NCBI GenBank assembly: GCA_018333995.1
Contig: JAGXSG010000008.1
Location: 207,210-271,209, forward strand
Reading direction: 5' to 3'
Length of the DNA stretch: 64,000 nucleotides
DNA from: Clostridiales bacterium
GTDB taxonomy: Bacteria > Actinomycetota > Coriobacteriia > Anaerosomatales > SLCP01
The notes under the pieces were generated by a model, which made no database searches, was not told where the DNA came from, and saw only the letters and a list, made by a program, of their open reading frames with translations. Numbering within the stretch: position 1 is the stretch's first letter; each line of letters opens with the position of its first letter. Below, piece after piece: positions 12,644-50,123 of the stretch. The position numbers and the translations under genes are program-made.

Positions 12644-12660
12644 CAGAGGAGGCAGTCTCC

Positions 12661-15115: not shown

Positions 15116-15124
15116 GGAGTCTGG

Positions 15125-18544: not shown

Positions 18545-18648
18545 GCCGCCGCGAATGCGCGCCGACCGTGTAGAATACGAAAACGTGCGTCACCGCGTGA
18601 GCGCGGCGGCGCGACAGGTTTCCACACTCCTAAGGAGCGACGTTACCC

Positions 18649-25910: not shown

Positions 25911-27035
25911 GTGCGTATCGTCTCTGTTGTGGGCGCTCGTCCGCAGTTCATTAAGGCCGCACCGGTGTGCCGCGCGCTGCGCGGGGCGGGACACGACGAG
26001 ATCCTCGTGCACTCCGGCCAGCACTACGACCACGGGATGTCACAGGTCTTCTTCGATGAGCTCGGAATTCCGGCTCCCGACCACAACCTGGAGGTGGGCG
26101 GGGGAGGCCATGGCCAGATGACGGGGCGGATGCTCGGGCTGCTTGAGGATCTGCTCATCGAGTTGGCCCCTGAGGCGGTACTCGTGTACGGCGACACCAA
26201 CACGACGCTCGCCGCCGCTCTCGCCGCCGCCAAACTTTGCATCCCAGTGGCGCATGTCGAGGCGGGACTGCGCTCGTTTAACCGTACGATGCCCGAAGAG
26301 ATCAACCGGGTGCTCACCGACCACGTCTCGGCGTGGCTCTTCTGTCCCACCGACACCGCCGTTGCAAATCTCGCCGCCGAGGGGATCGTGCACGGTGTGC
26401 ATCAGGTGGGTGACGTCATGCTCGACACTGCGCGCCACTTCGCCGAGCGCGTAGACGCCGAGAAGGTCGTGGCGTCGTATGGTGTCGCGCCCGGTGAATA
26501 CTACCTTGCGACGGTACATCGCGCCGCGACAACCGATGACCCTGTCATGTTGGCGGCGGTCGTTGCCGCGCTTGCCGCGCTCGACCGGCCGGTGCTGTGG
26601 CCCGTGCATCCGCGCACGCGGCGCGCGCTAGAAGCAAGTGCGAGTGATGTGCTGGCCGAGCCAACGAGAGCGGGCTCTTCGCTTCGCATCTTGGAGCCGC
26701 TGTCGTATCTCGACGCCAACGCACTGCTGCGTGGCGCTGCCGCGCTTCTCACGGACTCCGGCGGTATGCAAAAGGAGGCATATTTCCTTGGTGTGCCGTG
26801 TGTGACGCTCCGCGAAGAAACCGAGTGGGTCGAGACCGTGAGTGCGGGGTGGAACCGGCTCGCGGGTACGGATCCGGCGCGAATCGCCGCCGGGGTCGCC
26901 GAGGCTGTTGCCGCTGGCGTGGCGGCTCGGGACACCGCCGCATCCGAGCGCCCCGCCTTCTACGGCGATGGCAACGCCGCCGAGAAGATCGCTGCCGTGC
27001 TCTCCGAGGCGGGGCATGCGGGTGCGCGCGGTTGA
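25911..27035 (+). CDS. UDP-N-acetylglucosamine-type 2-epimerase (WecB/WbpI-like)
   Basis: MRIVSVVGARPQFIKAAPV N-terminus and HVEAGLRSFN motif. RBS GGAGG lies 9 nt before GTG 25911. It is divergent from the WbpB/D/E-like operon. Confidence 0.9.
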   Translation: MRIVSVVGARPQFIKAAPVCRALRGAGHDEILVHSGQHYDHGMSQVFFDELGIPAPDHNLEVGGGGHGQMTGRMLGLLEDLLIELAPEAVLVYGDTNTTLAAALAAAKLCIPVAHVEAGLRSFNRTMPEEINRVLTDHVSAWLFCPTDTAVANLAAEGIVHGVHQVGDVMLDTARHFAERVDAEKVVASYGVAPGEYYLATVHRAATTDDPVMLAAVVAALAALDRPVLWPVHPRTRRALEASASDVLAEPTRAGSSLRILEPLSYLDANALLRGAAALLTDSGGMQKEAYFLGVPCVTLREETEWVETVSAGWNRLAGTDPARIAAGVAEAVAAGVAARDTAASERPAFYGDGNAAEKIAAVLSEAGHAGARG

Positions 27036-27335
27036 TTGCTGTGTGGCGTGGGAGGCCGTGTTGCGCACAGCCGTTCATCCAATTGAACCGCCTTTCGTCG
27101 CACAATGGTGACCGTACATACGATTTTCGGTTGGGCTTGCTAAAGTCTTCACTATTCAGTACCGAGTATCACAGCCGTTGGGGGACGGTGATTCTCGGCC
27201 TGTAAGATGGGCGCCTCGGCCGGGATGAGTCAGTGGCGCAACCCACCCAGACACGCAAGAGCCATGTAGGGGCTTGGCCGTTGCCTGGGGGCAGCGATGG
27301 CCGGCGACCGTTGTCTCAAGGGGGGAGCGTTCACC

Positions 27336-30300: not shown

Positions 30301-32639
30301 CAGGCAACGAGAGCGCGCCGAGCGCGCCCGTAAACGCCGTCGCATATATCAACTTGGACGTTATCGCGCCAACGGTGCCAGGGAGCTTAAAGGCGTTGCC
30401 CGGCAACGCGCAGGTGACGCTGACGTGGGATGCTTCATATGACACATTCGGGGTTACCGGTTACGAAATCTGGATCAAGCGCACAGTGGTTGGCGAGTGG
30501 AGGATGGCCGCCGAGGTCGACTCGCTGGCCTACACGCCTCTTGGTCTAGACAACGGCATCACGTACTACTTCAAGATCCGGGCGTTAGATGACGTCGGAA
30601 ACGTCAGCGGTTTCACGGCTGACGTCGGGGCTACTCCCATTAGGACACCTGCACCGCTAGAGACGGTGCGAATCGAGGATACGGATCCGCGCATCCAGTA
30701 CTCCGGACCGTGGGCAGCCTTCTTCGATCCCCGCTACTCTGCAGGATCCATCCGCGCACTGAACGCGAATGGCTCTGCGTCACTGACATTCAGTGGTACA
30801 GGCGTGTCTGTGAAAGCGTACAGTACTGAGGTGTGGAACCGTGGCATGATGGATGTCTTCTTGAACGGAGCGTTCGTCACCAGGGTCGACCTCTACAGCG
30901 CTACGCTGGACTTCACGGTTCCAGTGTTTGAGAGCCAGAACTTACGTGATGGCACCCATACAATCAGGCTGGTTTGGACTGGCGAAAAGAACCCAGCGTC
31001 ATCGATGACGATAATCGACATCGACCGCTTCGATATCACGACCGGACCCGATGTGATCGCTCCAGTTGTTCCATCCGGTCTTGTTGTCACGGATAAACAC
31101 AATGACGAGTCGGGAGCGGTTGCCATCACATGGAACGCAAACTCTGAGGCCGATCTTGCAGGATACCGCCTGTATCGCTCGGATTCGATCAACGGACCCT
31201 TCATGCTTGTGACAGAGTTCGATAGGGTCACGAGCTATACAGACCCAGGACTGCTTGCTCATCGGGTGTACTACTACCAGCTGTCAGCGGTCGACTTCTC
31301 GGGCAACGAGTCCGCACGGTCGGTCACTGCTTCCGGTTCGCCGCGTGACGATGTGCCTCCGGCGGTTCCCACTGGCCTTTCCGTGCTCGACCGGCCGGGC
31401 GATGAGGGTGATGCGCTGATCGTATCGTGGACAGCGAATACAGAGCTTGATCTGGCGGGCTACCGAGTCTACCGGTCGGCATCAGCGACCGGTCCATTTG
31501 CCCTCGTAGCGACGCTTGGCAAGGAATCAACAACGCACACAAACACCGGTCTCGCGAAGCAGACCACGTATCACTACAGAGTGACCGCGCTCGATACGGC
31601 TGGTAACGAGTCCGCCCAAAGCCCCGCTGCTTCGGCCAGGACCGTGGACAATGTGCGGCCCAGTGATCCCACGAGCCTCGTGATCTCAGACCGTCCGAAC
31701 GATGATGGGACCGCACTCATCTTGTCGTGGACAGCGAGCACGAGTGGGGACGTTGTCGGATACCGTGTCTACCGTGCCGTGACTCCCGAGGGTCCCTTCA
31801 CAATGGTCAGGCAGCAGGCAGGTCTCAGCTACACCGATAGCGGCCTGTCGCCTACGGTCACGTACTACTACTACGTGACCGCGATCGATGCGGAGCCTAA
31901 CGAGTCCGGCAGTAGCTGCACCGGCTCCGGGGTACCCAGGGAACATGTGGCGCCATCGGCGACACGGGGCCTGTTCATTGTGGGCGGCGACGGCTACGCA
32001 AGTCTTGCGTGGCTTCCCGCCACGGATAACATCGGCGTGATGGGCTATGAGGTCTGGATGAGGGAGGGCTCGGGGGGCTCATACGAGAAACTTGCGGACA
32101 ACGCCTCGACCGCGTATTGGAAGGTCGGCCTCAGCAACGGAACGTCTTACACGTTCCGAGTGCGAGCTTTCGATGGGTCCGGCAATCTGGGAGCGTGGAG
32201 CAACGAGTATTCGGTTGTGCCGGTTGTGGCGACGGGTCAACTTCTGACGACACGCATTGAGGAAACCGATCCAGCTATTGTCTATACCGGAACCTGGCAT
32301 CTCTGGCACGATTCGCGACACTCGGGTGGCTCGATGACGCACACGCGCCAGGCAGGCGCATCAGCCACGCTCACATTCTCCGGGACGGGCGTCCAAGTCC
32401 GGGTAGTCGGAACAAATGCTTCGAACAGGGGCATGGTCGATGTCTACATCAACGGCGCCTATCAGACCACTGTCGACATGTACTCGTCTCTCCTCGCAAC
32501 ACAATGGACCATCTTTGAGGCGACCGGACTGGCCGACGGTCAGCATACCTTGACGCTGATCGCGACTGGTACCAAGAACGTCAAGAGTGGCGACACCATC
32601 GTCGACATTGACTGCTTCGACATCATCCGGCCCAACTAG
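27336..32639 (+). CDS. very large secreted FN3/PKD/CBM-like repeat protein (1767 aa from ATG 27336)
   Basis: Signal peptide LVLAVTLALATTVLVAPMPALA. There are two PKD-like units (..YEWDLDGDG.., ..YSWDFAADGE..) and many FN3 units of the type DxPxDxGGxIxLxW....D.AGYRIYR...Y.Y.V.AYD..GNES. Two copies of a ~125-aa beta-sandwich domain (nt ~30660-31040 and ~32243-32636) are also present. No LPXTG, CWB2 or SLH anchor was seen. Confidence 0.85.
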   Translation: MLYALVRGIQVFAIRTRVHCRVRGRSLVLAVTLALATTVLVAPMPALANNAGGAPANSGLTSPVLRVEPVAGHETLSQLAWSTQSGAAQYEVQCALDNLFRPNRLTGSVRLDAATSRYRFGGLRPGTTYFYRVRAVAPDGRTNGPWSNVVFFIDGKTHDGANRPIAVAGTGYETWIHVPITLDARLSHDPDGTIAKYEWDLDGDGVYDVTTIEPTVVHTPTKPGNRKVHLRVTDNSGHTATDRTFVKVRYDAFPPTAVIVGPVEATVGDLVFFDGSLSRDNEGFIQSYSWDFAADGEYEHTSLLPTCQYTFFVPGEWVVRLDVRDANGNVGTAYHTILVTQPTEFPPAAPTGLVAADTPDDDNGSITLSWNANAETDLLGYRIYRGMSADGPFMQVADAVSNNFVDTGLFDGATYYYHVIAYDAVGLESPPSNTVSAVPVDDLAPTAPAYIFAEDVAGDESGQVVVSWLASVARDLAGYVVTVVDPLGTVIANADVGIATSHTFEGLDNGVTYMFTVRAYDDAGNFSALSDKVYAAPVDDVAPAAPTDVSVLAPEGGSALTIRWSGSDSADVAGQRLYRDGAPIAELAADVRDYDDLGVENGVEYAYHVEAYDTSGNVSEPSNKATGRPHDALMPGAPELSPIGVPVEGGALELTWRPSDVGQTIGFAVYRDGGLVTEINDLGRVWHIDTGLINGTSYAYHVVAYGPEGRVSQPSNTVNGVPSDTVPPAVPVGLSAADTPDDEGGAIDLAWTANTDDTAGYRIYRDGVLVADAAGAGATTFTDSGLTNGAAYTYTVTAYDAAGNESAPSASANAVSADNLAPEAPEFLHVAPLAEGGAIVLTWSGSVSPDTAGYRIYRGGVLVADAAGAGATTFTDSGLTNGVAYTYTVTAYDAAGNESAPSAQVTGTPADTVPPAAPVGLSAADTPDDVGGAIDLAWTANTDDTAGYRIYRDGVLVADAAGAGATTFTDSGLTNGVTYTYTVTAYDAAGNESAPSAPVNAVAYINLDVIAPTVPGSLKALPGNAQVTLTWDASYDTFGVTGYEIWIKRTVVGEWRMAAEVDSLAYTPLGLDNGITYYFKIRALDDVGNVSGFTADVGATPIRTPAPLETVRIEDTDPRIQYSGPWAAFFDPRYSAGSIRALNANGSASLTFSGTGVSVKAYSTEVWNRGMMDVFLNGAFVTRVDLYSATLDFTVPVFESQNLRDGTHTIRLVWTGEKNPASSMTIIDIDRFDITTGPDVIAPVVPSGLVVTDKHNDESGAVAITWNANSEADLAGYRLYRSDSINGPFMLVTEFDRVTSYTDPGLLAHRVYYYQLSAVDFSGNESARSVTASGSPRDDVPPAVPTGLSVLDRPGDEGDALIVSWTANTELDLAGYRVYRSASATGPFALVATLGKESTTHTNTGLAKQTTYHYRVTALDTAGNESAQSPAASARTVDNVRPSDPTSLVISDRPNDDGTALILSWTASTSGDVVGYRVYRAVTPEGPFTMVRQQAGLSYTDSGLSPTVTYYYYVTAIDAEPNESGSSCTGSGVPREHVAPSATRGLFIVGGDGYASLAWLPATDNIGVMGYEVWMREGSGGSYEKLADNASTAYWKVGLSNGTSYTFRVRAFDGSGNLGAWSNEYSVVPVVATGQLLTTRIEETDPAIVYTGTWHLWHDSRHSGGSMTHTRQAGASATLTFSGTGVQVRVVGTNASNRGMVDVYINGAYQTTVDMYSSLLATQWTIFEATGLADGQHTLTLIATGTKNVKSGDTIVDIDCFDIIRPN
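29503..30336 (+). repeat. three tandem FN3-encoding DNA repeats (~280 bp period), copies 1 and 3 >90% identical at nucleotide level
   Basis: 29503-29771 aligns by eye with 30064-30332 (offset 561), with roughly a dozen or so substitutions. 29885-30050 matches both (offsets 279 and 282). Confidence 0.9.
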
Positions 32640-32694: not shown

Positions 32695-32831
32695 CATTGT
32701 GTATTCGTGCGCATCTGGCAGGTTGTACCGGGCAAGATGGCCTACGAAGTGGTTCGGGGATAATCTGGTATCGTGACTCTGTTCGGTCTCTCCAGCATTT
32801 CCCTGTTTGCGTCTGTGTTCCGGAGGACCAA

Positions 32832-33827
32832 GTGAATCTTGCGGGCAAAAAAGTCGTCGTGACCGGCGCAGATGGCTTCATCGGAAGCCATCTGGTCGAG
32901 GAACTCGTGGCGCACGGTTCGCGCGTCACCGCATTCTGCTACTACAACTCGTTCAACTCCTGGGGTTGGCTCGACACCGTGGCACCGGAGGTCATGTCCG
33001 AGGTCGAAGTCTTCATGGGCGACGTGCGTGACTCTAATGGGGTCCGTACCGCGCTTAAAGACACTGATGTGGTGATGCACCTTGCGGCGCTCATCGGCAT
33101 TCCTTTCTCGTATCACTCGCCCGACAGCTACGTGGATACCAACGTCAAGGGCACGCTGAATGTGTTGCAGGCGGGACGCGATCTCGAGCTCGAGCGCATC
33201 GTGGTAACGAGCACGAGTGAGGTCTACGGCACTGCGCTCTACGTGCCCATCGATGAGAAGCATCCGCGCCAGGGCCAGTCGCCGTACTCGGCGTCGAAGA
33301 TCGGTGCGGATGCGATGGCGGAGTCGTTCTACCGCAGCTTCGGCCTGCCGGTGACGATCGTGCGCCCGTTCAACACCTACGGGCCGAGGCAGTCCGCCCG
33401 CGCAGTGATCCCCACCATCATCACGCAGCTCATGGGGGGCGTCGAAGAACTGCACCTGGGGTCGCTGAATCCCACCCGCGACCTTACTTACGTAGCCGAT
33501 TCGGCGGCGGGCTTCATAGCGCTTGCCGAGTGCGACGCGGCGGTGGGCAGGGACGTGAACCTCGGCGTGGGCGATGAGATCACGATCGGCGATCTGGCCG
33601 CGATGCTCATGGAGATCACCGGTCGCACGGTGCCGATTGTCTCAACAGACGAGCGTTTGCGGCCCGACAAGAGCGAGGTCGAGCGGCTGCTCTCGGACAA
33701 CTCGCTAGCCCGCGAGCTCACGAGCTGGTCGCCTCGGTACTCGCTACGCGAAGGTCTGGAGCGCACCGTGGAGTGGTTCGCCGACGACCGCAATCGTCAG
33801 GGCTACAAACTCGGCTACACAATCTAA
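32832..33827 (+). CDS. NAD-dependent NDP-sugar dehydratase/epimerase (extended SDR)
   Basis: KKVVVTGADGFIGSHL Rossmann motif and YSASK catalytic motif. GTG 32832 follows RBS GGAGGA. Track start 32697 is an extension. Confidence 0.8.
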   Translation: MNLAGKKVVVTGADGFIGSHLVEELVAHGSRVTAFCYYNSFNSWGWLDTVAPEVMSEVEVFMGDVRDSNGVRTALKDTDVVMHLAALIGIPFSYHSPDSYVDTNVKGTLNVLQAGRDLELERIVVTSTSEVYGTALYVPIDEKHPRQGQSPYSASKIGADAMAESFYRSFGLPVTIVRPFNTYGPRQSARAVIPTIITQLMGGVEELHLGSLNPTRDLTYVADSAAGFIALAECDAAVGRDVNLGVGDEITIGDLAAMLMEITGRTVPIVSTDERLRPDKSEVERLLSDNSLARELTSWSPRYSLREGLERTVEWFADDRNRQGYKLGYTI

Positions 33828-33837
33828 CGGAGGGCAC

Positions 33838-34557
33838 ATGGGCTCGCGTGCAGTCATACTCGCCGGCGGCAAGGGCACGCGTCTGGCTCCCTACACCACC
33901 GTGTTTCCCAAGCCGCTCATGCCGCTCGGTGACACGCCGATCCTCGAAATCGTGCTACGTCAGCTTGCCGCGCGTAGGTTCGACCGCGCGACACTGGCTG
34001 TCGGGCATCTTGCCGAGTTGATGGAGGCGTTCTTTGGCGACGGCTCGAAGTTCGGCATCGCGGTGGATTACTCGCGCGAGGAGCAGCCGCTCGGCACCGC
34101 CGGCCCGCTTGCGTCCATCGACGGGCTGGACGAGCCGTTCCTCGTTATGAACGGCGATGTGCTCACCACGCTCGACTACCGGACGTTCCTCGAGGAACAC
34201 ATCACTTCGGGCGCGGTTGCTTCGGTAGCGACCAAGAAGCGCTCCACGCGCATCGACTTCGGCATCGTGCAGACCAATGAGGCCGGGGATATCACCGGCT
34301 ATATCGAGAAACCCGAACACGAGTACCGCGTGAGCATGGGTGTCTACGCGTTCTCGCCGCCGGCCCTCGGTCACATCGCCGAGGGCGAACGGCTCGACTT
34401 CCCCGACCTCATCTTGCGGCTGCTCGCCGCCGAGGCGCGCGTGCGGGCCGTGCCGTTCGACGGGTACTGGCTCGACATCGGTCGTCACGATGACTTTGAC
34501 CGTGCGCAGGAGGAGTTCGAGGCCAAGCGTGAACTCTTCCTGCCGACGGGGGGCTAG
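33838..34557 (+). CDS. sugar-1-phosphate nucleotidylyltransferase (NTP_transferase family)
   Basis: AVILAGGKGTRLAPYTTVFPKPLMPL signature; 239 aa. Confidence 0.85.
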   Translation: MGSRAVILAGGKGTRLAPYTTVFPKPLMPLGDTPILEIVLRQLAARRFDRATLAVGHLAELMEAFFGDGSKFGIAVDYSREEQPLGTAGPLASIDGLDEPFLVMNGDVLTTLDYRTFLEEHITSGAVASVATKKRSTRIDFGIVQTNEAGDITGYIEKPEHEYRVSMGVYAFSPPALGHIAEGERLDFPDLILRLLAAEARVRAVPFDGYWLDIGRHDDFDRAQEEFEAKRELFLPTGG

Positions 34558-34558
34558 C

Positions 34559-35449
34559 GTGTCCGGAGTGCTCGTCACCGGTGCGGCTGGCTTTTTGGGA
34601 AGCGCGGTGTGTCGTGCGGCGCTCGCCGGAGGAGCGCCCGTACTCGGCCTCGTGCGTCCGGGCGAGTTGGTTGCTCCGATCGAAGGTGTGGAGTACTGCG
34701 AGTTAGACTGGGCTGGCACCGCCGCGATCGCTGGCGTGCTTGCCGAGGCGGCACCCGGACGGATCGTTCACTGCGCCGGTGCCACGCCGAGGGCGCAGAT
34801 GAGCATGAGCGATCTCTACGATGCCAACGTGCGGCTTGTCTGGCAGCTGCTCGACGCGGTGAAGGCGGTGGTCCCGCACGCGGGTGTCGTCGTCCCGAGT
34901 ACGGCGGCTGTCTACGGCCCTGCACCCGCAACCCCCGCAGCGGAAGACGAGCCGCTTAACCCCGTCACGCACTACGCCTGGAGCAAGGTGCTGGCCGAGG
35001 AGACGGTGCGAGCGTTTGCAACTGCCGACGGAGTGCGCGCGTGCGTTGCCCGCCCGTTCAACGTGCTCGGGGACGGTGAGCCGGCCGGTTCGGTGGTGAG
35101 CGACGTGGTCTCCCAGTTGCGCGAGGACCCGGATACTCCTGTGGTCCGGCTGCGCGAAATCGTCTCGGTTCGCGACTACATCTACGTGGGCGACGCGGTC
35201 GACGCACTTCTAGTACTCGCCGAGCGGGGAGCGCCGGGCGAGGTCTACAACGTGTGCACCGGCACCGGCGTCAGCATCGCCGAACTCGTGCGGACCATCC
35301 TCGATGTGTGGGGCTCTCGCGCTGCGATCGAGCCGACCATGCCGGATGCAACGGGTACTGTCTCGATCGGCTCGGCCACCAAGCTTCGCGCGCTCGGGTG
35401 GGGGCCCAGAGCATCTCTGCGCACGTCGGTGGAGCGGGCGAGTCGATGA
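34559..35449 (+). CDS. NAD-dependent epimerase/reductase (extended SDR)
   Basis: VLVTGAAGFLGSAV Rossmann motif and YAWSK catalytic motif. GTG 34559 lies 1 nt after the upstream stop. Track start 34340 is an extension. Confidence 0.75.
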   Translation: MSGVLVTGAAGFLGSAVCRAALAGGAPVLGLVRPGELVAPIEGVEYCELDWAGTAAIAGVLAEAAPGRIVHCAGATPRAQMSMSDLYDANVRLVWQLLDAVKAVVPHAGVVVPSTAAVYGPAPATPAAEDEPLNPVTHYAWSKVLAEETVRAFATADGVRACVARPFNVLGDGEPAGSVVSDVVSQLREDPDTPVVRLREIVSVRDYIYVGDAVDALLVLAERGAPGEVYNVCTGTGVSIAELVRTILDVWGSRAAIEPTMPDATGTVSIGSATKLRALGWGPRASLRTSVERASR

Positions 35450-36442: not shown

Positions 36443-37525
36443 ATGAACCTCCTGATCACCGGCGGATGCGGCTTCATAGGCACCAATCTCGTTCGACTCG
36501 CGGTGCTCGAAGGTGGGCACTCGGTGACCAACGTCGACCTTCTGACATACGCGGGCAACCGCGGTTCTCTTCAGAACCTCGAGGACCGTCCAGATTACAA
36601 ACTCGTGGTTGCCGACATCTGCGATGCGGCGACCATGCGCGAGGTTTTCGAGCGCGTCCAGCCTGCCGCCGTGCTGCATCTCGCAGCCGAGTCGCACGTG
36701 GATCGCTCCATCGACGGGCCCGCGGAGTTCGTCAGGACGAACATAGCGGGTACGTTCACGATGCTGGATGCCGCGACTGTGTACTGGCGGTCACTCGAGT
36801 CCGAGCGAGCTGGAGCCTTCCGGTTCATCCACGTGTCGACCGATGAGGTGTACGGCAGTTTGGGGCCAGACGATCCGCCGTTTTGTGAGGAGACCAAGTA
36901 CGATCCCCACTCGCCTTATGCGGCGAGCAAGGCCGCGGCTGATCATCTTGCTCGGGCGTGGCATGACACCTACGGCCTTCCGGTGATCGTCACCAACTGC
37001 TCCAACAACTACGGGCCGTATCAGTTCCCCGAGAAGCTCATTCCAGTTGTCATCCTGAAGGCGCTCGCGGGCGAGCCAATCCCCGTGTACGGCGTCGGAG
37101 ACAACGTGAGGGACTGGTTGCACGTCAGCGACCACGCGCGTGCACTCCTGCGGATACTTGATGCCGGCGAGCCCGGTCGTACCTACAACATCGGCGGTGC
37201 GAACGAGATGAAGAACATCGATCTCGTGCGTCGCGTGTGCGGTCATCTGGACGAGTTGATGCCGCGTGAGAGCGGAGGGTCCTACGCCGAACAGATCGAG
37301 TTTGTGACCGACCGCCCAGGGCATGACAAACGCTACGCCATTGATGGCTCGCGCATACGCCGAGAGCTTGGGTGGACTCCGACCCAGGATCCCGATACGG
37401 CTTTGCGCTCCACAGTACACTGGTACGTTGAGCACCAGGTATGGTGGCAGGATATCCTGAGCGGCGACTATCGCCTCGACCGTTTGGGCCTTGGCACACT
37501 ACACGGGAACAAGGAGAGCCAGTGA
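36443..37525 (+). CDS. rfbB: dTDP-glucose 4,6-dehydratase
   Basis: [29 protein letters not shown] and the C-terminal [12 protein letters not shown] motif. Track start 36365 is an extension. Confidence 0.9.
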
Positions 37526-38382
37526 AGGGAATCGTCCTTGCCGGTGGAGCGGGCACACGCCTACACCCGATAACTTTCGCCGCGTCCAAACAGCTGCTGC
37601 CCGTGTATGACAAGCCGATGATCTATTATCCGCTCTCGGTGCTGCTACTGGCTGGGATGCGAGAGATCCTTGTGATCACGACGCCCGCCGACAAACCGTC
37701 ATTCGAGCGCGTGCTTGGTAACGGGAATCAGTGGGGAGTCGAGATCTCCTACGCCGTGCAGCCCACACCCGGCGGCCTGGCGCAAGCATTCCTGATCGGA
37801 GAGGAGTTCCTCGGCGGTAGTCCTGCGTGTCTCGTGTTGGGCGACAATATCTTCTACGGTGGCGGGCTGGTGGACATCCTCCGCGGCGCACGCGATGACG
37901 CAAGCCAGGGCGGAGCGGTCGTCTTCGGTTATCAGGTTCGGGATCCGCAACGCTACGGTGTCGTGGAGTTCGACGATGCGGGCACCGTGCTCTCTTTGGA
38001 AGAGAAGCCTGCAAATCCGCGCTCGAACTACGCAGTCACCGGGCTCTACTTCTATGACAACCGGGTGTGTGACCTTGCCAAGCGTGTCGAGCCATCGGCG
38101 CGCGGCGAGGTCGAGATCACAACGCTCAACAACCTCTATCTGGCGGAGGGCGCATTGAGTGTTCGTCTGATGAGCCGGGGTATGGCATGGCTCGACACGG
38201 GTACACCGGATTCACTCATGGATGCCGCCCTGTTCGTGCAAACTATCGAGAAGAGACAAGGCCAGAAGATCGCGTGCCTCGAGGAGATCGCTTATCGGAT
38301 GGGCCTGATAGATAAGACGGCATTGCGGCAGGCGATGGCGGGAACGTCATCGGAATACTACCGGTACCTCGGAAGTCTCTGA
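37522..38382 (+). CDS. rfbA: glucose-1-phosphate thymidylyltransferase
   Basis: [38 protein letters not shown] is the classic RmlA signature. GTG 37522 overlaps the rfbB TGA. Confidence 0.95.
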
Positions 38383-38421: not shown

Positions 38422-39570
38422 ATGCTGAACGACGTGTTCGTCGTAGGGGTCGGGAAGACGCGTTTCGGGCCCACATCCAAGACCATGACGCAGCTTGCCC
38501 AGGAGGCGATACTCGACGCGCTCGATGATGCCGACATCGCCCCAGACGATCTGGATGCGATCATCGTCGGAAACTTCCTGGCTGGTCCCAACGAACAACA
38601 ACTTCACCTGAACTCGGTGATCGCGGGCCTCTTCCCCGGACTGAACATCCCAAGTTGGCGCACTGAGGCCGCATGTGCGTCCGGTGGCGTTGCACTCCAC
38701 CAGGCAGTCCTATCTCTGCATCGGTATGAGACCGTTCTTGTGGTGGGCATCGAGCGCATGAGCGGCGTAGTTGGCTTGGAACTCACGCGCAACATCGGCA
38801 TGGCTGGTGACGCTGTGCTCGATCAGGTCGCAGGCCTGAACTTCCCTGCAAACTATGCGCTCGTCGCTCAGGCACATATGGCCGCATACACCACCACCAC
38901 GCGCGATCTTGAACTCGTGAGCCTCAAGAATCACGAAAACGCGAACCTCAACCCGAAGGCACACTTTCATCACAAGCAGGTCGTGCAGGTCGACATCGAC
39001 GCGGGCGCGACTGTTGCGTCCCCGCTCCGTCTATTTGACTGCTGCCCCGTCTCGGATGGCGCGGCGGCGGCCATAGTGAGTTCGCGCCGCCGCAGTTCTC
39101 GCAGTGTGCGGGTGTTGGCGTCTGCGGTATCGAGCGATGTGATCTCGCTGGCGCAGCGCCGGACCCTCACGAGCTTCGCGGCGGCCAAAGACGCGGCGAG
39201 GCGCGCATATTCCGAGGCGGGTATCGGACCCGACGACGTCAGTCTCGCGGAGGTGCACGACTGTTTCACCATAGCCGAACTGGTTGCTATGGAGGATCTC
39301 GGCCTTGCGCCGCCCGGTGGAGCTGCCGCGCTGCTGCGTGCTGGGGCGACCCAGATCAACGGCCGCATCCCCGTCAACCCCAGCGGGGGGCTCAAAGCCG
39401 GCGGTCATGCCATCGGGGCCACGGGCGTGGGGCAGATCTACGAGATCGTCACGCAGCTGCGGGGCGAGGCCGAGAACCGGCAGGTTCGCGATGCGAGAAT
39501 CGGACTGGCGCATAACGTTGGCGGTGTTGGCGGGACGTGTTCGGTGCACCTGCTGGGAGGTGCCTCATGA
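38422..39570 (+). CDS. thiolase, SCP-x/archaeal type (acetyl-CoA C-acetyltransferase-like)
   Basis: Nucleophile-Cys motif EAACASGG, the HDCF motif (AEVHDCFTIAE), GGHAIGATG and C-terminal NVGGVGGTCSVHLL. Confidence 0.85.
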   Translation: MLNDVFVVGVGKTRFGPTSKTMTQLAQEAILDALDDADIAPDDLDAIIVGNFLAGPNEQQLHLNSVIAGLFPGLNIPSWRTEAACASGGVALHQAVLSLHRYETVLVVGIERMSGVVGLELTRNIGMAGDAVLDQVAGLNFPANYALVAQAHMAAYTTTTRDLELVSLKNHENANLNPKAHFHHKQVVQVDIDAGATVASPLRLFDCCPVSDGAAAAIVSSRRRSSRSVRVLASAVSSDVISLAQRRTLTSFAAAKDAARRAYSEAGIGPDDVSLAEVHDCFTIAELVAMEDLGLAPPGGAAALLRAGATQINGRIPVNPSGGLKAGGHAIGATGVGQIYEIVTQLRGEAENRQVRDARIGLAHNVGGVGGTCSVHLLGGAS

Positions 39571-40673
39571 AGCATTGGGTTTGCTCTCAGTGTGAACGCG
39601 ATTTTGCGTACGAGATCAGTCAGTGCACGTGGTGCCGCGTGAAGCTCAGTCTGCGCGAGCCCGACCATGCGCAGATCACGGCCATCACCGAGGTTTCTGC
39701 AGGCAGCGTCGGGCACGAGGACGTTCCCTACTGGTGTGCTCTTGTGTCTGCCGAGGATGGTTCGCAGGCGATCGTGAAACTCGACCATGCAGCGAGTGTC
39801 GGTGACACGCTGTCGTTCGGTGCGGAGGAGGCCGCTGAGCTGGCGGTCGTGGGTATTCTTGGCACCGGCACGATGGGTCGCGGCCTCGCGGAACTGCTAT
39901 TAGCGCGAGGGCATCGCGTGGTGTGGTGTGGCCGATCCGCCGAGCGGCTCGCACGAGCGCGTGAGAGACTCCTCGATCGGCTCAGTCGCGTGATGGACGT
40001 GGAGCAGATTCAGGAAGCGAGCCTCAGGCTCGAGGTCTCGGCAGACTACTCGTCGCTTCAGAGCTGCGACATCGTGATCGAGGCGGTCGTCGAGGAGTTG
40101 TCGGCCAAACGCGCCGCGCTGGCGGCTGCCGAGGCGCACATGCGATCCGGCGCGATCCTCGCAACAAACACATCTGGTCTCCCCATCGATGAGCTGGCAG
40201 ATTCGCTCCGGCGGCCTGGTGATTTCGGCGTGCTGCACTTCTTCAATCCGCCCACACGGATGCGGCTTGTTGAGACAGCGGTGGGCGACAAGACATCGCA
40301 CGAGACAAGCGAGTACCTCGACGTTTTTGCGCGATCTTTGGGCAAGACCCCTGTCCGAGTTGCTGCGAAGCCGGCGTTCGCCGTCAATCGCGCGCTCATG
40401 CCTCTGCTTAATGAGGCTGTCCGCGAGTTGGAAGAGGAGGTAGCCTCGGCAGAGTCGATTGACGAGGCGATCCGACTCGGGCTGAACCACCCGATGGGTC
40501 CCTTGGCGCTTATCGATCTCATAGGGGCGGATGTCGTGGTCAAGATCATGGACAACATCGTTGAACGTACTGGTGATGAGACCTATGCACCGCGGCCTCT
40601 TCTGAGGGCGCTTGTTGCCGAGGGCCGACTTGGGCGCAAGACCGGGGCAGGGTTCTACGAGTATCCGCGGTAG
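39567..40673 (+). CDS. fusion protein: DUF35-like zinc-ribbon/OB domain + 3-hydroxyacyl-CoA dehydrogenase
   Basis: Residues 1-~85 carry CxxC-x10-CxxC (CSQCERDFAYEISQCTWC) followed by a short beta-rich segment. Residues ~92-368 carry GILGTGTMGRGLA (Rossmann), NTSG and HFFNP (catalytic His). The ATG overlaps the thiolase TGA (ATGA). Confidence 0.8.
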   Translation: MKHWVCSQCERDFAYEISQCTWCRVKLSLREPDHAQITAITEVSAGSVGHEDVPYWCALVSAEDGSQAIVKLDHAASVGDTLSFGAEEAAELAVVGILGTGTMGRGLAELLLARGHRVVWCGRSAERLARARERLLDRLSRVMDVEQIQEASLRLEVSADYSSLQSCDIVIEAVVEELSAKRAALAAAEAHMRSGAILATNTSGLPIDELADSLRRPGDFGVLHFFNPPTRMRLVETAVGDKTSHETSEYLDVFARSLGKTPVRVAAKPAFAVNRALMPLLNEAVRELEEEVASAESIDEAIRLGLNHPMGPLALIDLIGADVVVKIMDNIVERTGDETYAPRPLLRALVAEGRLGRKTGAGFYEYPR

Positions 40674-40689: not shown

Positions 40690-41304
40690 ATGGCTATGCG
40701 GTTCCTGGTGATCGGGGTTGGTGGTCTGGCGAAGGAAATGACGGACCTGGTGGTGGCCCTCGGTCACGAGGTGACGGCGTACTTCACCGAGAAGGAAGCG
40801 GTAATCCTGCACCCCTTGGAGGGGGTCACGATCATCAACGACCTCGATGACGCGCAGTGCGATGCCGCCCTTATCGCGATTGGGAACACGTCCGCCCGCC
40901 AGCGCTTCTTCGAGCAGTTGGCTGGTCGATTCGAGCTTCCCACGCTCATTCACCCCTCAGCGTGCGTGAGTCCTTCGGCGCGCATCGGGGACGGGGTCCT
41001 GGTGATGCAGAATGTGGTTCTCAATGCCGACGCCGAGGTGGGTGCTGGCGCACTTTTGAACGTTGGATGCTGTGTCGCGCATGACTGCCACGTAGGAGCA
41101 TACAGCCACCTTGCGCCATGCACGCAGATGGGCGGTGGCTCATCTGTCGGCGCCGGGGTGTTCTGCGGTACCTCAGCGGTAGTGCTGCCCAACGTGACCG
41201 TTGGCGGTTGGTCGATCTGTGGAGCTGGTTCGGTCGTGACGAAAGACGTGCCCGAGCGCAGTCTTGCTGTGGGCGTGCCCGCTCGCGTGGTGAAGTCGCT
41301 ATGA
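40690..41304 (+). CDS. NeuD/PglD-family hexapeptide sugar N-acyltransferase
   Basis: N-terminal Rossmann-like FLVIGVGGLAKEM, then an LbH domain with VAHDCHVG (PglD-type catalytic His). RBS GGGAGGG. Confidence 0.8.
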   Translation: MAMRFLVIGVGGLAKEMTDLVVALGHEVTAYFTEKEAVILHPLEGVTIINDLDDAQCDAALIAIGNTSARQRFFEQLAGRFELPTLIHPSACVSPSARIGDGVLVMQNVVLNADAEVGAGALLNVGCCVAHDCHVGAYSHLAPCTQMGGGSSVGAGVFCGTSAVVLPNVTVGGWSICGAGSVVTKDVPERSLAVGVPARVVKSL

Positions 41305-42440
41305 GCAAGCGACCCGCCTTTGGCACGCCGCTGCATGTGGGTCGACCGAACATCGGTGACAAGGCGGCTTTCCTCGCGCGCGTTGAGGACATGTTCGATC
41401 GGCGCTGGCTGTCAAACGACGGACCTTGCCTGCAGGAGTTCGAGGAATGGATGGCCGAGTTTCTTGGCGTGCGTCACTTCATTGCGGTCTGCAACGGCAC
41501 GGTAGGTCTCGAGATCATGGCCAAGGCATGCGGCCTCGTCGGCGAGGTCATCATGCCCGCCTTCACGTTCGTCGCCACTGCTCACGCGATGCAATGGGTG
41601 GGGGCGACGCCGGTCTTCTGTGACGTCGACCCTAGAACCCACAACATCGATCCATCTCTTGTTGAGCACCTCATCACTGACGAGACTACGGGAATTCTCG
41701 GTGTGCATGTCTGGGGGCGGCCGTGCGATGTTGAGGCGCTCGAGGCCATTGCACGGCGCAATGGCCTCGTCCTCGTGTTCGATGCCGCACACGCGCTTGG
41801 TTGCACACATGGCGGACGCATGATTGGCAACTTTGGTGTCGCAGAGTGCTTCAGCTTCCATGCGACCAAGTTCTTCAACACTTTCGAGGGGGGCGCCATC
41901 ACCACGAACGACGATGAGGTGGCGAATCGTTGCCGCTTGATGAGGAACTTTGGCTTCGACGGCCCGGACAACGTTGTCTCCGTGGGCACCAATGGCAAGA
42001 TGAGCGAGGTGAGTGCGGCGATGGGTCTCACGAACCTGGAGTCGATGGCGAGCTTCACGGATACGAATGCGCGCAACTATCGGGCGTACGCGGCGGGCCT
42101 TGATGGGATCCCGGGAATCGAGCTGATCGAGTACTCCGAGAGTGATCGGTGCAACTGCCAGTATGTAGTGATCGAGATCGATGAGACTTGGTCAGGGCTG
42201 TCCCGCGATGAGCTGCAGGCGCAACTGACAGCCGACAACGTCCTGGCGCGCCGCTACTTCTACCCAGGTTGCCACCTCATGAAGCCCTACGCATCCGAGC
42301 CTCTGCGTGCGCAGCTCCCCGAGACTGAGCGCCTGGCGAGCAGAACACTGTCGCTCCCTACCGGGACTGCTGTTGATGAGCGCGACATTCAAGCTGTCTG
42401 CCGCCTGATCGGCGACGCGGTCAACGCGGCTCGTGGGTGA
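41301..42440 (+). CDS. DegT/DnrJ/EryC1-family PLP sugar aminotransferase
   Basis: PLP-Lys motif FSFHATKFF and family pattern MPAFTFVATAHA. ATG 41301 overlaps the upstream TGA. Track start 41118 is an extension. Confidence 0.9.
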   Translation: MSKRPAFGTPLHVGRPNIGDKAAFLARVEDMFDRRWLSNDGPCLQEFEEWMAEFLGVRHFIAVCNGTVGLEIMAKACGLVGEVIMPAFTFVATAHAMQWVGATPVFCDVDPRTHNIDPSLVEHLITDETTGILGVHVWGRPCDVEALEAIARRNGLVLVFDAAHALGCTHGGRMIGNFGVAECFSFHATKFFNTFEGGAITTNDDEVANRCRLMRNFGFDGPDNVVSVGTNGKMSEVSAAMGLTNLESMASFTDTNARNYRAYAAGLDGIPGIELIEYSESDRCNCQYVVIEIDETWSGLSRDELQAQLTADNVLARRYFYPGCHLMKPYASEPLRAQLPETERLASRTLSLPTGTAVDERDIQAVCRLIGDAVNAARG

Positions 42441-43476
42441 GGCGTCGGTGAAACGGCTCGGCCCACCCGACTCTGGGCCCTTGGTTAAGGTCAGCGTTGT
42501 GACCATCGCCTACAACCAGGAAGCGTACATCGCCGAGGCGGTCGAGAGCGTGCTCATGCAGGAGTGCGACTTCGACTTCGAGTACATCATCGGTGACGAC
42601 GCCTCCACTGATGGGACCTGGGAGATCCTGAAGGAGTACCAGCGCCGGTACCCGGAGCGCATCAAGCTCCGCTTGCACGATTCGAACATGGGCGCTCAAC
42701 GGAATCTGGCAGATGCGCTTGCGCAGTGCACAGGACAGTATGTTGCCCTGCTCGACGGCGACGACTTCTGGACCTCGGAGCACAAGCTGCAGACACAGGT
42801 CGACTTCATGGACGCGAACCCCGATTGCGCGCTGAGCTGCCACGGCTGTTTGATGGTGCACAGTGACGGGACTCCCTTCGCTGCCCTGCCCGCGCACGGT
42901 TGCGCGCCCGAGCGCTCGGGCATTGAGGAGTTGTTGTCTCGATCCATCACGAGCACGCACATACTCACGCCGACTGTGATGTATCGGTGGGGTCTCGTCG
43001 AGCTCCCCGATTGGTGGAACGAGCACAGGCTCGGGGACTTTCCGCTGCACGTACTTCACGCTCAGTATGGTTGGGTTGGCTACATCGACGAGGTGATGGC
43101 GGCATCCCGTTTTCACGCAGGCGGTATGTGGAGGAGTGAGTCTGGCGTTACCAACCTCCTGGAATTCGTCGCAGTCTTGCATCGACTCGATGACGCGCTG
43201 AACAACCGCTATCACGACATCATAGAGCGGAACGTGCTCAGACACGGGGAGTACGAGTTCTCCCTCAGATTCACCGCGGCCACGCACGCCCTTAATAGCG
43301 CCGAGCGGTTGAACGCGAGGCCGCATATGCGCTGGATACGGAGAAATCTCGCGCTGCGAGGCGATCATGGGCTGAAGGATTTATCGATCCTTCTGGTGCG
43401 GTATGTCAGCCCGAGGCTGCTCGCCGTGATGGTGGCGGTCAAGCGGGGTCCGCGCCGACTCCTAGGCGGGAAATGA
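42433..43476 (+). CDS. family 2 glycosyltransferase (paralogue A)
   Basis: VSVVTIAYNQEAYIAEAVESVLMQ .. IIGDDASTDGT .. LLDGDD (DxD). Start is uncertain (GTG 42433, GTG 42448 or TTG 42481). Confidence 0.85.
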   Translation: MGEASVKRLGPPDSGPLVKVSVVTIAYNQEAYIAEAVESVLMQECDFDFEYIIGDDASTDGTWEILKEYQRRYPERIKLRLHDSNMGAQRNLADALAQCTGQYVALLDGDDFWTSEHKLQTQVDFMDANPDCALSCHGCLMVHSDGTPFAALPAHGCAPERSGIEELLSRSITSTHILTPTVMYRWGLVELPDWWNEHRLGDFPLHVLHAQYGWVGYIDEVMAASRFHAGGMWRSESGVTNLLEFVAVLHRLDDALNNRYHDIIERNVLRHGEYEFSLRFTAATHALNSAERLNARPHMRWIRRNLALRGDHGLKDLSILLVRYVSPRLLAVMVAVKRGPRRLLGGK

Positions 43477-48269: not shown

Positions 48270-50123
48270 CTACGCCAACAGCTGTGTCTCGAACAGCCGC
48301 TGGTACGTCTCACCCTTGGCCGCCAACTCCTCGTGCGTGCCGCGCTCGACGATGCGCCCGTCCTCGATCACAAGCAGCTGGTCAGCCTTGATGACCGTCG
48401 CCAACCGGTGCGCGATGACGATGATCGTCTTCGTGCCGTGCAGCCCGGCGAGCGCCTTTTGGATGTAGGCCTCGGACTCGGAATCGAGCGCGCTCGTTGG
48501 CTCGTCAAGGATCAGCACCGAGCATTCCTCGAGCAGCACGCGAGCGAGCGCGATGCGCTGGCGCTCACCCCCGGAGAACCGCACGCCGCGGTCGCCGAGT
48601 CTCGTCTCCAGGCCATGCGGCAGGTCGTAGACGAACGTCGCGTACGCCTGCTCGAGCGCGACGCGCAGCTGCTCCTCGGTGGGCTCGAATCCGAGCCCGT
48701 AGGTGAGGTTCTCCCTGACAGACTCGTTGAAGAGCATCGCATCTTGCGTGAGGTACCCGATGCCCCGGCGAAGCGAGCCGACCTGGAAGCGCCTCACGTC
48801 GGTCCCGTCGATGGTGACGCTGCCGCCTCCGACGTCACGCAGGCGCGGCAGCAGTTCGACAAGCGTTGACTTGCCGGCGCCCGAGCGCCCCACGATCGCT
48901 GTGAACGAGCCGACGGGGATCGTGACAGAAACGCCGCTGAGCACCTCTTTGCCGGCGGACTCCACCGAGCCGTCCGCCGCGCGCGTCTCCGGGTAGGCGA
49001 AGGACACGTTAGAAAGCGCGATCTCGCGGGTGACCCCCTCGAACGGGATCTCGCCGCCGCGTATCGTGTTGGACTTCTCGGCGTCCGCGATGGTCTCTTG
49101 GACGAGCAACAGCCCCGCCATGTTCTGCGAGATAGCCTGTCTGCCCGCGTTGAACTCCTTGATCTTGCCGTTCAGGCGACTGAGCACAAAGAGCACGAGG
49201 CCGAGCTGTGCGAGCGTCATGCCAAGCACGTCGATGCCGATGTAGAGTGTGACGAACGCCGACATCATGAGCAGCGGGTCGGCGGTTACCTCGATCATCG
49301 CCCCAAGGCGCGCCTGTTTGACGCTTATCGCGCGCATCGTCTCGGAGAACGCGCCGATCCGCTCGGACTCGGCGCGCTTCTGATGGCGGAGCTTTACGAG
49401 GCGCATCATCCCGAGCCGCTCGACCACTTTCCCGATCATCTCCTGGGTCACGCCTGCCGACTCGATGGCAAAGTCACGGATCTTGCGCACGTAGGTCTTC
49501 ACGACGAGCGAGACGACGACGGCGAAAGCGAGCGTGACCATCGTGAGCGGGACCGAGAGTGCGAGCAGGATGGCGACGTAGAGCAGCATGAGGAATGTGA
49601 CTGTCAGCTGCCGGATGATGGCGAGAACCGCGGCACCGGCTAGGCCGGTCTGTGCGACGACGATCCCCACGAGATGTCCGGCTGACTGGCGCGTGAAGAA
49701 CTCGGGGTCCGCGTCGAGCACTGCGTCAAGTGTGGCCATCCGCATCCGTACCCCGATCCTGCCGGCGACGATTGCGGAGTACCAGGCGTTCAGGTAGAAG
49801 ATGACCTGCCGCATAAGGATAGGCACAAACGCCATGAGGAGCAGGACCGGGAGGGTGACCGGCAGGCCCGCGAACTCCATGAGCCGACGAAGCGCGTCCC
49901 AGATAGCGCCCGCACCCTCAATGATCGCTGTTTGCCCGCCCTCGGCGTACTGCAGGATCGGGAGGAGGAGCGAGATACCCACGCCCTCGAAGACGGCGAA
50001 AATCGCCGCGAACGCGACCAGCCCCGCGATCTCGCTCGCCCTCACATCGACGATGGCGAGCATCCGCCGGATGGCGTTGACGCGTAGGAACTCGTTCGCG
50101 GCGTGCAAAGCTTTGGCGAGCAC
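48270..50123 (-). CDS. MsbA/PglK-like ABC exporter (fused TMD-NBD)
   Basis: Six-TM N-terminal half, Walker A GRSGAGKST, signature FSGGERQRIALAR and Walker B ILILDEPTS. It is the first gene of the minus-strand GT operon. Confidence 0.9.
   Translation of the reverse strand: MLAKALHAANEFLRVNAIRRMLAIVDVRASEIAGLVAFAAIFAVFEGVGISLLLPILQYAEGGQTAIIEGAGAIWDALRRLMEFAGLPVTLPVLLLMAFVPILMRQVIFYLNAWYSAIVAGRIGVRMRMATLDAVLDADPEFFTRQSAGHLVGIVVAQTGLAGAAVLAIIRQLTVTFLMLLYVAILLALSVPLTMVTLAFAVVVSLVVKTYVRKIRDFAIESAGVTQEMIGKVVERLGMMRLVKLRHQKRAESERIGAFSETMRAISVKQARLGAMIEVTADPLLMMSAFVTLYIGIDVLGMTLAQLGLVLFVLSRLNGKIKEFNAGRQAISQNMAGLLLVQETIADAEKSNTIRGGEIPFEGVTREIALSNVSFAYPETRAADGSVESAGKEVLSGVSVTIPVGSFTAIVGRSGAGKSTLVELLPRLRDVGGGSVTIDGTDVRRFQVGSLRRGIGYLTQDAMLFNESVRENLTYGLGFEPTEEQLRVALEQAYATFVYDLPHGLETRLGDRGVRFSGGERQRIALARVLLEECSVLILDEPTSALDSESEAYIQKALAGLHGTKTIIVIAHRLATVIKADQLLVIEDGRIVERGTHEELAAKGETYQRLFETQLLA

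Follow-up and report, generated by a model that had tools for sequence, protein, structure and literature searches.

The thiolase and the fusion protein

Two adjacent genes are considered here, one encoding a thiolase of the SCP2/archaeal type and the other a protein in which a short N-terminal domain, very probably of the DUF35 family, is joined to an (S)-3-hydroxybutyryl-CoA dehydrogenase (HBD) domain. They lie in a 64,000-nucleotide stretch of DNA with a G+C content of about 62% (positions 207,210 to 271,209 of contig JAGXSG010000008.1, GenBank assembly GCA_018333995.1, a Clostridiales bacterium placed by GTDB in the Coriobacteriia), which is called the window below; all coordinates refer to it. 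Both genes belong to a tightly packed block of seven, read on the forward strand in the order RmlB, RmlA, thiolase, fusion, N-acyltransferase, aminotransferase, and GT2 glycosyltransferase, with overlaps of 4–8 nt and gaps of 16–39 nt.

The thiolase (38422..39570, 382 aa) bears the motifs EAACASGG, which includes the catalytic Cys, EVHDCF, and GGHAIGATG, and matches Pfam Thiolase_N (2.8e-19) and Thiolase_C_1 (2.3e-44), the latter being the SCP2/archaeal-type C-terminal domain. Its best PDB sequence match is 6esq_A/6et9 (E 1e-72), an archaeal acetoacetyl-CoA thiolase that constitutes chain A of the thiolase/HMG-CoA synthase (HMGCS)/DUF35 complex of Methanothermococcus; in a residue-by-residue alignment with 6esq_A, the catalytic Cys, HDCF, and GHxxGATG all align. 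The archaeal-type assignment made in a preliminary description of this DNA is thus borne out by domains, motifs, and the closest structure. The protein stays below the NCBIfam cut-offs, being a near miss for PRK06064 ("thiolase domain-containing protein", 409.4 against 420 bits) and reaching 362 bits for AcCoTHIOL_METTL, whose cut-off is 600. The window has neither a second thiolase nor a stand-alone DUF35, so that the N-terminal domain of the fusion would be the sole local DUF35 for this thiolase. No HMGCS or KAS-III-like gene occurs within 10 kb on either side, nor in the related loci considered below.

The thiolase gene and the next open reading frame (ORF) are coupled by an ATGA overlap, as had been proposed: in the junction ...gcctcATGAag..., the TGA stop (39568–39570) overlaps the ATG at 39567. 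A mechanical ORF list puts the start of the fusion at GTG 39537 (378 aa); the ATG is preferred, giving a protein of 368 aa (39567..40673), because it agrees with the alignment of homologues, with a ribosome-binding site (GGAGG), and with the conserved overlap of stop and start.

The larger part of the fusion, residues 94–368 (39846..40673), is the HBD domain. Pfam 3HCDH_N covers residues 95–266 (5e-47) and 3HCDH residues 271–366 (1e-31); the Rossmann-fold motif GTGTMG, NTSG, and HFFNP are all present, and the catalytic residues S203 (in NTS), H224 (in HFFNP), E236, and N274 are invariant across the fusion family. The domain aligns end to end with Hbd of Clostridium butyricum, C. acetobutylicum, and Thermus, with Ralstonia PaaH1, and with human HADH; among PDB sequences it matches the Hbd entries 4kue, 4r1n, and 6aa8 at E ~1e-61. 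When the full-length model is submitted to Foldseek, Hbd structures are retrieved with target-normalised TM-scores (TMt) of 0.90–0.95 and root-mean-square deviations of 1.4–2.0 Å (TMt 0.90–0.93 for C. acetobutylicum Hbd). A complete 3-hydroxyacyl-CoA dehydrogenase had been claimed for residues 90–368, and these matches confirm it. All the sequence features named in the preliminary description are present at the coordinates it gives. Only Hbd structures are matched by the full-length model, over about 280 of 368 residues, and no solved structure with both domains is found by Foldseek.

The acidic residue that ends Rossmann strand beta-2 and confers NAD specificity is absent from the domain: VVWCGRS (fusion residues 117–123, 39927–39947) aligns with VIVRD of 4kue and LLYD of 3mog. 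Throughout the fusion family, the end of beta-2 is occupied by Gly, Ser, or Ala followed by an invariant Arg, whereas NAD-dependent Hbds have Asp. Because Gly and the invariant Arg replace Asp, the usual Rossmann-fold rule suggests from the sequence that the HBD domain uses NADPH, a cofactor that would suit operation in the biosynthetic direction.

The N-terminal domain as a shortened DUF35

Residues 1–92 of the fusion (39567..39842) comprise a four-Cys rubredoxin-like zinc ribbon (C6-x2-C9-x10-C20-x2-C23), an OB-like beta barrel, and a short linker helix (residues 85–91). This is the layout of DUF35 proteins, which combine Pfam PF12172 (zf-ChsH2, the zinc ribbon) with PF01796 (OB_ChsH2_C, formerly DUF35). 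The fusion is no chance ORF, since more than 120 full-length homologues (366–383 aa, identity down to 54%) retain the N-terminal domain with C6, C9, C20, C23, H50, E51, P54, and Y55 invariant; the four ribbon Cys are invariant across a set of 44 homologues.

A single-sequence Pfam scan, either of residues 1–95 or of the full protein, gives no match to PF12172 or PF01796 at E<=1, and Pfam and NCBIfam scans of residues 1–95 return weak generic zinc-ribbon matches only. Among 120 homologues, none has a precomputed DUF35 domain, and no public annotation of it exists. The single-sequence miss is not taken as a refutation because tests at the level of the family succeed. When the 44 homologues are scanned singly, PF01796 is found in 22 (best E 3.9e-6) and PF12172 in 14. 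A profile of the domain compared with PDB sequences has as its top match the DUF35 chain of 6esq/6et9 (6esq_E; residues 4–75 against 18–93), with a marginal E value of 0.046 that makes the match supporting, not decisive. Searched against 1.84 billion representatives, the same profile reaches stand-alone proteins of 100–146 aa at library-wide E values from 4.5e-7 to 8e-4, and all ten of those scanned match PF01796, eight of them above the gathering cut-off. A direct hhalign comparison of the profile with these ten proteins gives 99.3% (E 2e-20, 85 columns), a figure that is not fully independent, as the ten were chosen by the same profile. Conversely, a hidden Markov model built from the ten stand-alone proteins matches only the fusion ORF in a six-frame translation of the window (E 6e-11). 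Long proteins with 5–18 matched stretches (P0125, P0141, and others) were rejected as repeated zinc ribbons, not DUF35.

The fold points the same way. The AlphaFold2 model of residues 1–92 has a predicted local distance difference test (pLDDT) value of 86.7, and its top 15 Foldseek matches in the PDB are all DUF35 proteins, aligned over 86–92 columns; the query-normalised TM-score (TMq) is 0.60–0.68 for 14 of them and 0.49 for SSO2064 (3irb). They include the DUF35 part of ChsH2 (6ok1), BbsA (7pxp), PhlB (5m3k), chains of MucABC (9vbt), the DUF35 of 6esq, and Trf (6htj), and ribosomal zinc-ribbon proteins appear below rank 15. Taken together, the data make it very probable that the N-terminal domain is a DUF35 paired with the thiolase. 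The earlier proposal of a DUF35 at residues 1–90 is upheld through the family profile and the structure, not through single-sequence Pfam, and its layout stands as regards the ribbon and the OB fold; it does not stand as a full-length DUF35. The ribbon begins at residue 4, aligned to residue 18 of 6esq_E, and the domain measures about 88–92 residues against 118–145 for its stand-alone relatives. In SSO2064 and other stand-alone DUF35 proteins, a helical segment precedes the ribbon (PMC2954200), and this segment is absent from the fusion domain in the alignments to 6esq_E and to the Foldseek targets. The domain is therefore referred to as mini-DUF35.

This truncation, along with the second rank in Foldseek of the DUF35-like Trf, whose role is non-metabolic, would suit another reading, namely that the domain is a zinc-ribbon/OB module with a part in oligomerisation, in regulation, or in the binding of CoA or nucleic acids, while the two enzymes act independently. 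Such a role appears quite improbable, since, apart from Trf, the top structural matches are all DUF35 subunits bound to a thiolase and since the domain is adjacent and translationally coupled to a Thiolase_C_1 thiolase in every locus, whether its own fusion partner is HBD, a short-chain dehydrogenase/reductase (SDR), or DUF362.

Gene neighbourhood and the predicted acyl donor

A motif scan for the N-terminal domain in one genome per species (185,579 species) finds the fusion in 18 genomes, all of them uncultured Actinomycetota/Coriobacteriia metagenome-assembled genomes, two of which are labelled "Eubacteriales". The thiolase lies directly upstream of the fusion in all 18 and is 67–93% identical to that of the window, so the survey of neighbourhoods suggested in the preliminary description shows the pair to be kept throughout. 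In these genomes and in the window, the thiolase stop overlaps or abuts the fusion start, mostly as a 4-nt ATGA or GTGA and in a few cases by 1 or 11 nt. Four divergent fusions (P0132, P0135, P0146, and P0148) are likewise found directly behind a thiolase, with the same coupling of stop and start.

In the window, the pair is flanked by genes of sugar-nucleotide synthesis. Upstream are an RmlB-like dTDP-glucose 4,6-dehydratase (36443..37525, 360 aa; Pfam Epimerase and GDP_Man_Dehyd; coordinates mapped from the gene calls and Pfam matches of the identical contigs L001/L002) and an RmlA-like glucose-1-phosphate thymidylyltransferase (37522..38382, 286 aa; NTP_transferase), the stop of the former overlapping the start of the latter in a GTGA. 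Downstream, 16 nt past the fusion stop and preceded by a GGGAGGG ribosome-binding site, begins a PerB/PglD/VioB-like left-handed beta-helix (LbH) N-acyltransferase (40690..41304, 204 aa; PglD_N and Hexapep), whose gene is joined by an ATGA overlap to that of a DesI-like dTDP-4-keto-6-deoxyglucose 4-aminotransferase (41301..42440, 379 aa; DegT_DnrJ_EryC1). The block is closed by the GT2 gene (42433..43476; Glycos_transf_2), for which starts at 42433 and 42448 are both possible. The aminotransferase matches DesI (2po3) at E 1.7e-121; the best PDB match of the acyltransferase is the perosamine N-acetyltransferase PerB (4ea7, E 2e-36), followed by PglB, PglD, and VioB, all of which acylate the C4 amine of a 6-deoxyhexose. 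An NDP-keto-deoxyhexose route, an aminotransferase, and an N-acyltransferase are hence assembled in one cluster, and no 3,4-ketoisomerase is present. Because the enzymes are of the C4 type and the ketoisomerase is missing, the predicted sugar is dTDP-4-amino-4,6-dideoxy-D-glucose, N-acylated at C4. The same seven-gene block occurs with different flanking genes in an 89%-identical relative; RmlA is 92% identical and in the same position in relative L012, and GT2 follows the aminotransferase in L012, L013, and L022.

The acyltransferase that accompanies the pair varies from genome to genome. Six of the 18 genomes have a PglD-like acyltransferase together with a DegT aminotransferase no farther than ~5 kb from it, one of them in a UDP-sugar context with a PglF-like dehydratase and NeuB. 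In 8 genomes, the neighbour is a convergent HGSNAT-type membrane acyltransferase, with a match to a membrane-anchored PIG-L de-N-acetylase in 7 of the 8. Two genomes have PIG-L, an LpxD-like acyltransferase, and GT4 upstream and Wzy/Wzz downstream, one has GT4 and a GNAT, and in the last (L016/L030) only CWB2 cell-wall-binding proteins are seen. Overall, glycan context is found in 17/18 genomes and includes an acyltransferase in 16/18. The location inside a glycan operon, regarded as unusual in the preliminary description, is therefore a conserved context and not an oddity, and it probably reflects the purpose of the module.

The HGSNAT_cat (PF07786) genes, with PIG-L behind them where it occurs, come after the pair, at about 11100–13300 of each 20-kb locus in L017–L019, L023, L024, and L027–L029, and at 9129–11233 in L009–L011; the PIG-L proteins of the HGSNAT loci have an N-terminal membrane anchor. 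This combination looks like a system that strips N-acetyl groups from an extracytoplasmic glycan and re-acylates it from cytoplasmic acyl-CoA. In L020/L031 (3790–10523 in L031) and L021 (4119–13460), the genes present are those of a flippase, PIG-L, an LpxD-like LbH acyltransferase, GT4, thiolase, fusion, Wzy_C, and Wzz. By analogy, the pairing of PIG-L with an LpxD-like enzyme recalls the LpxC/LpxD logic, with acetyl exchanged for 3-hydroxyacyl.

Beyond these genomes, the mini-DUF35 occurs in front of other enzymes as well. Counted as clusters at 50%-identity resolution, the N-domain profile retrieves 27 of mini-DUF35::HBD, many from low-G+C lineages and 35–45% identical to the window protein, 27 of mini-DUF35::DUF362 (P0130, P0148, P0156, P0170, and 23 others; 330–495 aa), and one of mini-DUF35::SDR (P0146). 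In all four neighbourhoods fetched, the fusion stands directly behind a Thiolase_C_1 thiolase. P0132 (HBD) shows the order LbH acyltransferase, thiolase, fusion, GT2; P0135 (HBD) has the thiolase upstream on a short contig; in P0148 (DUF362; L035 586–6574), the genes are those of a polysaccharide deacetylase, thiolase, fusion, GNAT, and radical-SAM enzyme. P0146 (L032/L033 6875–9701) has thiolase, fusion, and a convergent LbH acyltransferase, in a cluster that also holds a flippase, GT4s, a UDP-sugar dehydrogenase, a 2-epimerase, and a polysaccharide deacetylase. Its SDR is FabG/PhaB-like and comes from a groundwater metagenome; the protein is likely an (R)-specific counterpart of the HBD fusion. 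As two unrelated ketoreductase families (3HCDH and SDR) share the tag and the cassette, production of 3-hydroxyacyl-CoA beside the thiolase for a glycan acyltransferase appears to be the selected function. DUF362 may act on acetoacetyl-CoA.

From these elements, a pathway can be proposed. Thiolase-catalysed condensation of two acetyl-CoA is strongly unfavourable. The thiolase would condense two acetyl-CoA to acetoacetyl-CoA, and the mini-DUF35 would dock on the thiolase dimer, holding the HBD domain near the thiolase active site; docking is proposed by analogy, because all solved complexes of the thiolase family show DUF35 docked in this way. The condensation would then be drawn onward as acetoacetyl-CoA is at once reduced, probably by NADPH, to (S)-3-hydroxybutyryl-CoA. 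The product would serve as the acyl donor for the PerB/PglD-type N-acyltransferase, not for fermentation or storage. This enzyme is predicted to acylate the dTDP-4-amino-4,6-dideoxy-D-glucose supplied by RmlA, RmlB, and the DesI-like aminotransferase to give dTDP-4-(3-hydroxybutanoylamino)-4,6-dideoxyhexose, a sugar that the adjacent glycosyltransferases would place in a cell-surface glycan. That the pair is, as a whole, a channelled acetyl-CoA to 3-hydroxybutyryl-CoA module supplying a glycan acyl donor is the explanation we favour, with a probability slightly above even.

A different view would be that the pair belongs to general metabolism (butyrate or acetoacetate fermentation, reverse beta-oxidation, or breakdown of short-chain acyl-CoA) and merely adjoins glycan genes, the acyltransferase being an N-acetylating enzyme. 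It finds support in the closeness of the HBD domain to clostridial fermentative Hbd enzymes, in the use of acetyl-CoA by the best solved relatives of the acyltransferase, and in the one genome where the pair has no neighbouring acyltransferase. We nevertheless hold it to be improbable, because the pair lies within an operon whose sugar genes overlap by 4 nt, and because chance explains poorly why four unrelated families of acyltransferase accompany it, in rearranged contexts and distant lineages. Moreover, partner genes of fermentation, beta-oxidation, or polyhydroxyalkanoate (PHA) synthesis are lacking: in the ~25 neighbourhoods examined, there is no crotonase, acyl-CoA dehydrogenase/Bcd/ETF, CoA-transferase, PHA synthase, or HMGCS. 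Three specific pathways were accordingly rejected, namely PHA synthesis (no PhaC/PhaE in any neighbourhood), the mevalonate pathway (no HMGCS), and butyrate fermentation (no crotonase/Bcd/Etf genes).

The pair could also be a source of acyl groups for a glycan while the group (acetoacetyl, a longer 3-hydroxyacyl, or O-linked or polymerised hydroxybutyrate) or the acceptor is other than proposed. The thiolase may accept other chain lengths, the partner acyltransferases elsewhere are of HGSNAT, LpxD-like, and GNAT types that act on different acceptors, and the mini-DUF35::DUF362 fusions suggest other fates of acetoacetyl-CoA. On the other hand, the window aminotransferase is DesI-like at the E value given above, the acyltransferase falls in the group of C4-amine N-acyltransferases, and the nearest relatives of the HBD domain are C4-specific Hbd enzymes, so that this variant is rated as unlikely, if a little less so than a role in general metabolism.

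Several observations weigh against the 3-hydroxybutyryl donor module. The closest solved relatives of the acyltransferase are acetyltransferases, and its use of 3-hydroxybutyryl-CoA is a prediction from the neighbourhood; HBD-family enzymes give the (S) isomer, and the 3-hydroxybutanoyl sugars in the papers cited below are (R). The NADPH call depends on one sequence position, and a mini-DUF35 devoid of the N-terminal segment of stand-alone DUF35 could have a different docking interface. Further, the HGSNAT-class acyltransferase is encoded on the opposite strand and so is not co-transcribed with the pair, the L016/L030 pair stands between cell-wall-binding proteins only, with no acyltransferase in view, and the conservation of the neighbourhood may partly reflect shared ancestry in one uncultured lineage.

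A broader proposal, which we put forward tentatively and at rather less than even probability, is that the mini-DUF35, at ~88 residues, acts as a portable tag for docking to thiolases and defines widespread undescribed acyl-donor supply cassettes in many uncultured bacteria, replacing or diversifying the N-acyl groups of surface glycans. Such a cassette would consist of an SCP2-type thiolase, a mini-DUF35 joined to an acetoacetyl-CoA-consuming enzyme (HBD, SDR, or DUF362), an N-acyltransferase, and often a de-N-acetylase; an extracytoplasmic swap of acetyl for hydroxybutyryl by PIG-L and an HGSNAT-type transmembrane acyltransferase is a possible sub-case. If the module works as proposed, DUF35 scaffolding would extend from archaeal isoprenoid and fatty-acid synthesis to the tailoring of bacterial surface glycans, in a minimal, tethered form of two polypeptides, and the source of 3-hydroxybutyryl-CoA for N-acylated sugars would be explained in organisms that may lack a polyhydroxybutyrate or butyrate pathway. 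The family also provides a signature for annotation, as public records name the fusions plain "3-hydroxybutyryl-CoA dehydrogenase" and miss the DUF35 part, and it flags DUF362 as a probable acetoacetyl-CoA-linked enzyme. For metabolic engineers, it would show a compact way in which nature drives the condensation of acetyl-CoA. Although no change of paradigm, it is a useful, testable lead for specialists in thiolase complexes or bacterial glycans.

As for the rest of the window, about 40 kb of it (about 20500–62000) is devoted to glycan biosynthesis. Besides many GT4/GT2 genes, this region contains a UDP-GlcNAc 2-epimerase (25911–27035), an ABC exporter (48270–50123), ManC (52661–54187), a Wzy_C-TPR protein (58407–60554), and two further NDP-sugar modules, with epimerase/NTP-transferase/RmlD-like genes and a Methyltransf_21 gene at 32697–35449. 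An S8 subtilase bearing three CWB2 cell-wall-binding repeats is encoded at 15125–18544 and an fn3/PKD surface protein of 1780 aa at 27297–32639, directly upstream of the glycan genes, and CWB2 proteins flank the pair in L030 too; the glycan made here may be a secondary cell-wall polymer anchoring proteins of the CWB2 type. A haem/cytochrome c biogenesis cluster (2215–19935; CcmF-like protein, glutamyl-tRNA reductase, radical-SAM/SPASM enzyme, and class-III aminotransferase) hints at a respiratory lifestyle, and a multihaem cytochrome is encoded near the pair in L009/L010.

Relation to known systems

A thiolase/HMGCS/DUF35 complex of archaea was reportedly described in a study of 2018. There, thiolase and HMGCS are bridged by DUF35, so that the first step is drawn along by the exergonic second (PMC12960953). 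The likeness to the present pair is considerable, since that complex holds the closest solved thiolase, a DUF35 is encoded alongside, and an exergonic step pulls a Claisen condensation. Here, however, HMGCS is absent and an HBD-type reductase takes its place, the DUF35 is shortened and covalently fused, and the module occurs in a bacterium, in a context of glycan rather than isoprenoid synthesis.

Closer in its chemistry is the "archaeal FAS" (fatty-acid synthesis) system of Sulfolobus acidocaldarius, in which a ketothiolase/DUF35 binds an NADPH-dependent acetoacetyl-CoA reductase and a MaoC dehydratase (bioRxiv 10.1101/2024.07.05.601840). There, too, DUF35 mediates the assembly of a thiolase with a ketoacyl-CoA reductase that consumes its product, but the DUF35 is a separate protein, the (R)-specific SDR is bound non-covalently, and the complex makes fatty acids, whereas the reductase of the window, a member of the (S)-specific 3HCDH family, is covalently attached to DUF35 and is predicted to feed a sugar N-acyltransferase. 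The haloarchaeal ketothiolases PhaA-alpha/beta and BktB-alpha/beta likewise depend on an OB-fold, DUF35-type beta subunit that is indispensable (PMC7137286), and their acetoacetyl-CoA is then reduced by PhaB to 3-hydroxybutyryl-CoA; in contrast to the fusion, their beta subunit is free-standing, the SDR reductase is separate, and the product goes to PHA.

Covalent fusion of DUF35 to a pathway enzyme that binds a thiolase-fold partner is known from ChsH2 and Shy, characterised MaoC hydratase::DUF35 fusions that dock the thiolase-like aldolases Ltp2/Sal (PDB 6ok1; PMC11321319, PMC12329534), and 6ok1_D is the top Foldseek match of the mini-DUF35. In these proteins, by contrast, DUF35 follows a hot-dog hydratase at the C-terminal end and binds an aldolase, and the function is catabolic, in the degradation of steroid side chains. 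In the BbsAB benzoylsuccinyl-CoA thiolase (7pxp) and the PhlABC/MucABC acyltransferases (5m3k, 9vbt), found at Foldseek ranks 4–12, DUF35 is bound to thiolase-fold subunits of the SCP2 type as well; there it is a separate subunit, no reductase is involved, and the chemistry is different.

On the glycan side, the dedicated transferases FdhC and QdhC make the 3-hydroxybutanoyl derivatives dTDP-Fuc3N(3-hydroxybutanoyl) and dTDP-Qui3N(3-hydroxybutanoyl) in O-antigens (PMC4869667; Liu et al. 2010 as cited there). Those pathways share with the window an RmlA-dependent dTDP-amino-dideoxyhexose and a subsequent dedicated 3-hydroxybutanoyl transfer, predicted in the present case, within a glycan cluster. 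As described, however, their clusters contain the transferase only, with no donor-making thiolase or reductase, their amine is at C3, reached through an isomerase, and their acyl group has the (R) configuration, while the window has a predicted C4 amine, the putative donor-making enzymes within the operon, and a predicted (S) isomer.

The preliminary description knew of no described example of the fusion. Literature searches found no description of a DUF35::3-hydroxyacyl-CoA dehydrogenase fusion or of its shortened DUF35, nor of a thiolase/reductase pair in a glycan cluster as an acyl-donor supply. The fusion is indeed uncharacterised and its DUF35 part unannotated; the principle, on the contrary, has precedents, as a 2010 paper already lists fusions of DUF35 with Rossmann-fold dehydrogenase domains (PMC2954200), the non-covalent archaeal complex dates from 2024, and an HMGS-DUF35 fusion has been mentioned for Pseudomonas fluorescens. 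The original interpretation is thus supported with three corrections: the glycan context is conserved, the principle is precedented, and the DUF35 is shortened. Compared with all these systems, the scaffold principle is known. The novelty lies in the covalent joining of mini-DUF35 to HBD, in the spread of this form across a family, and most of all in the glycan-tailoring setting in which it occurs.

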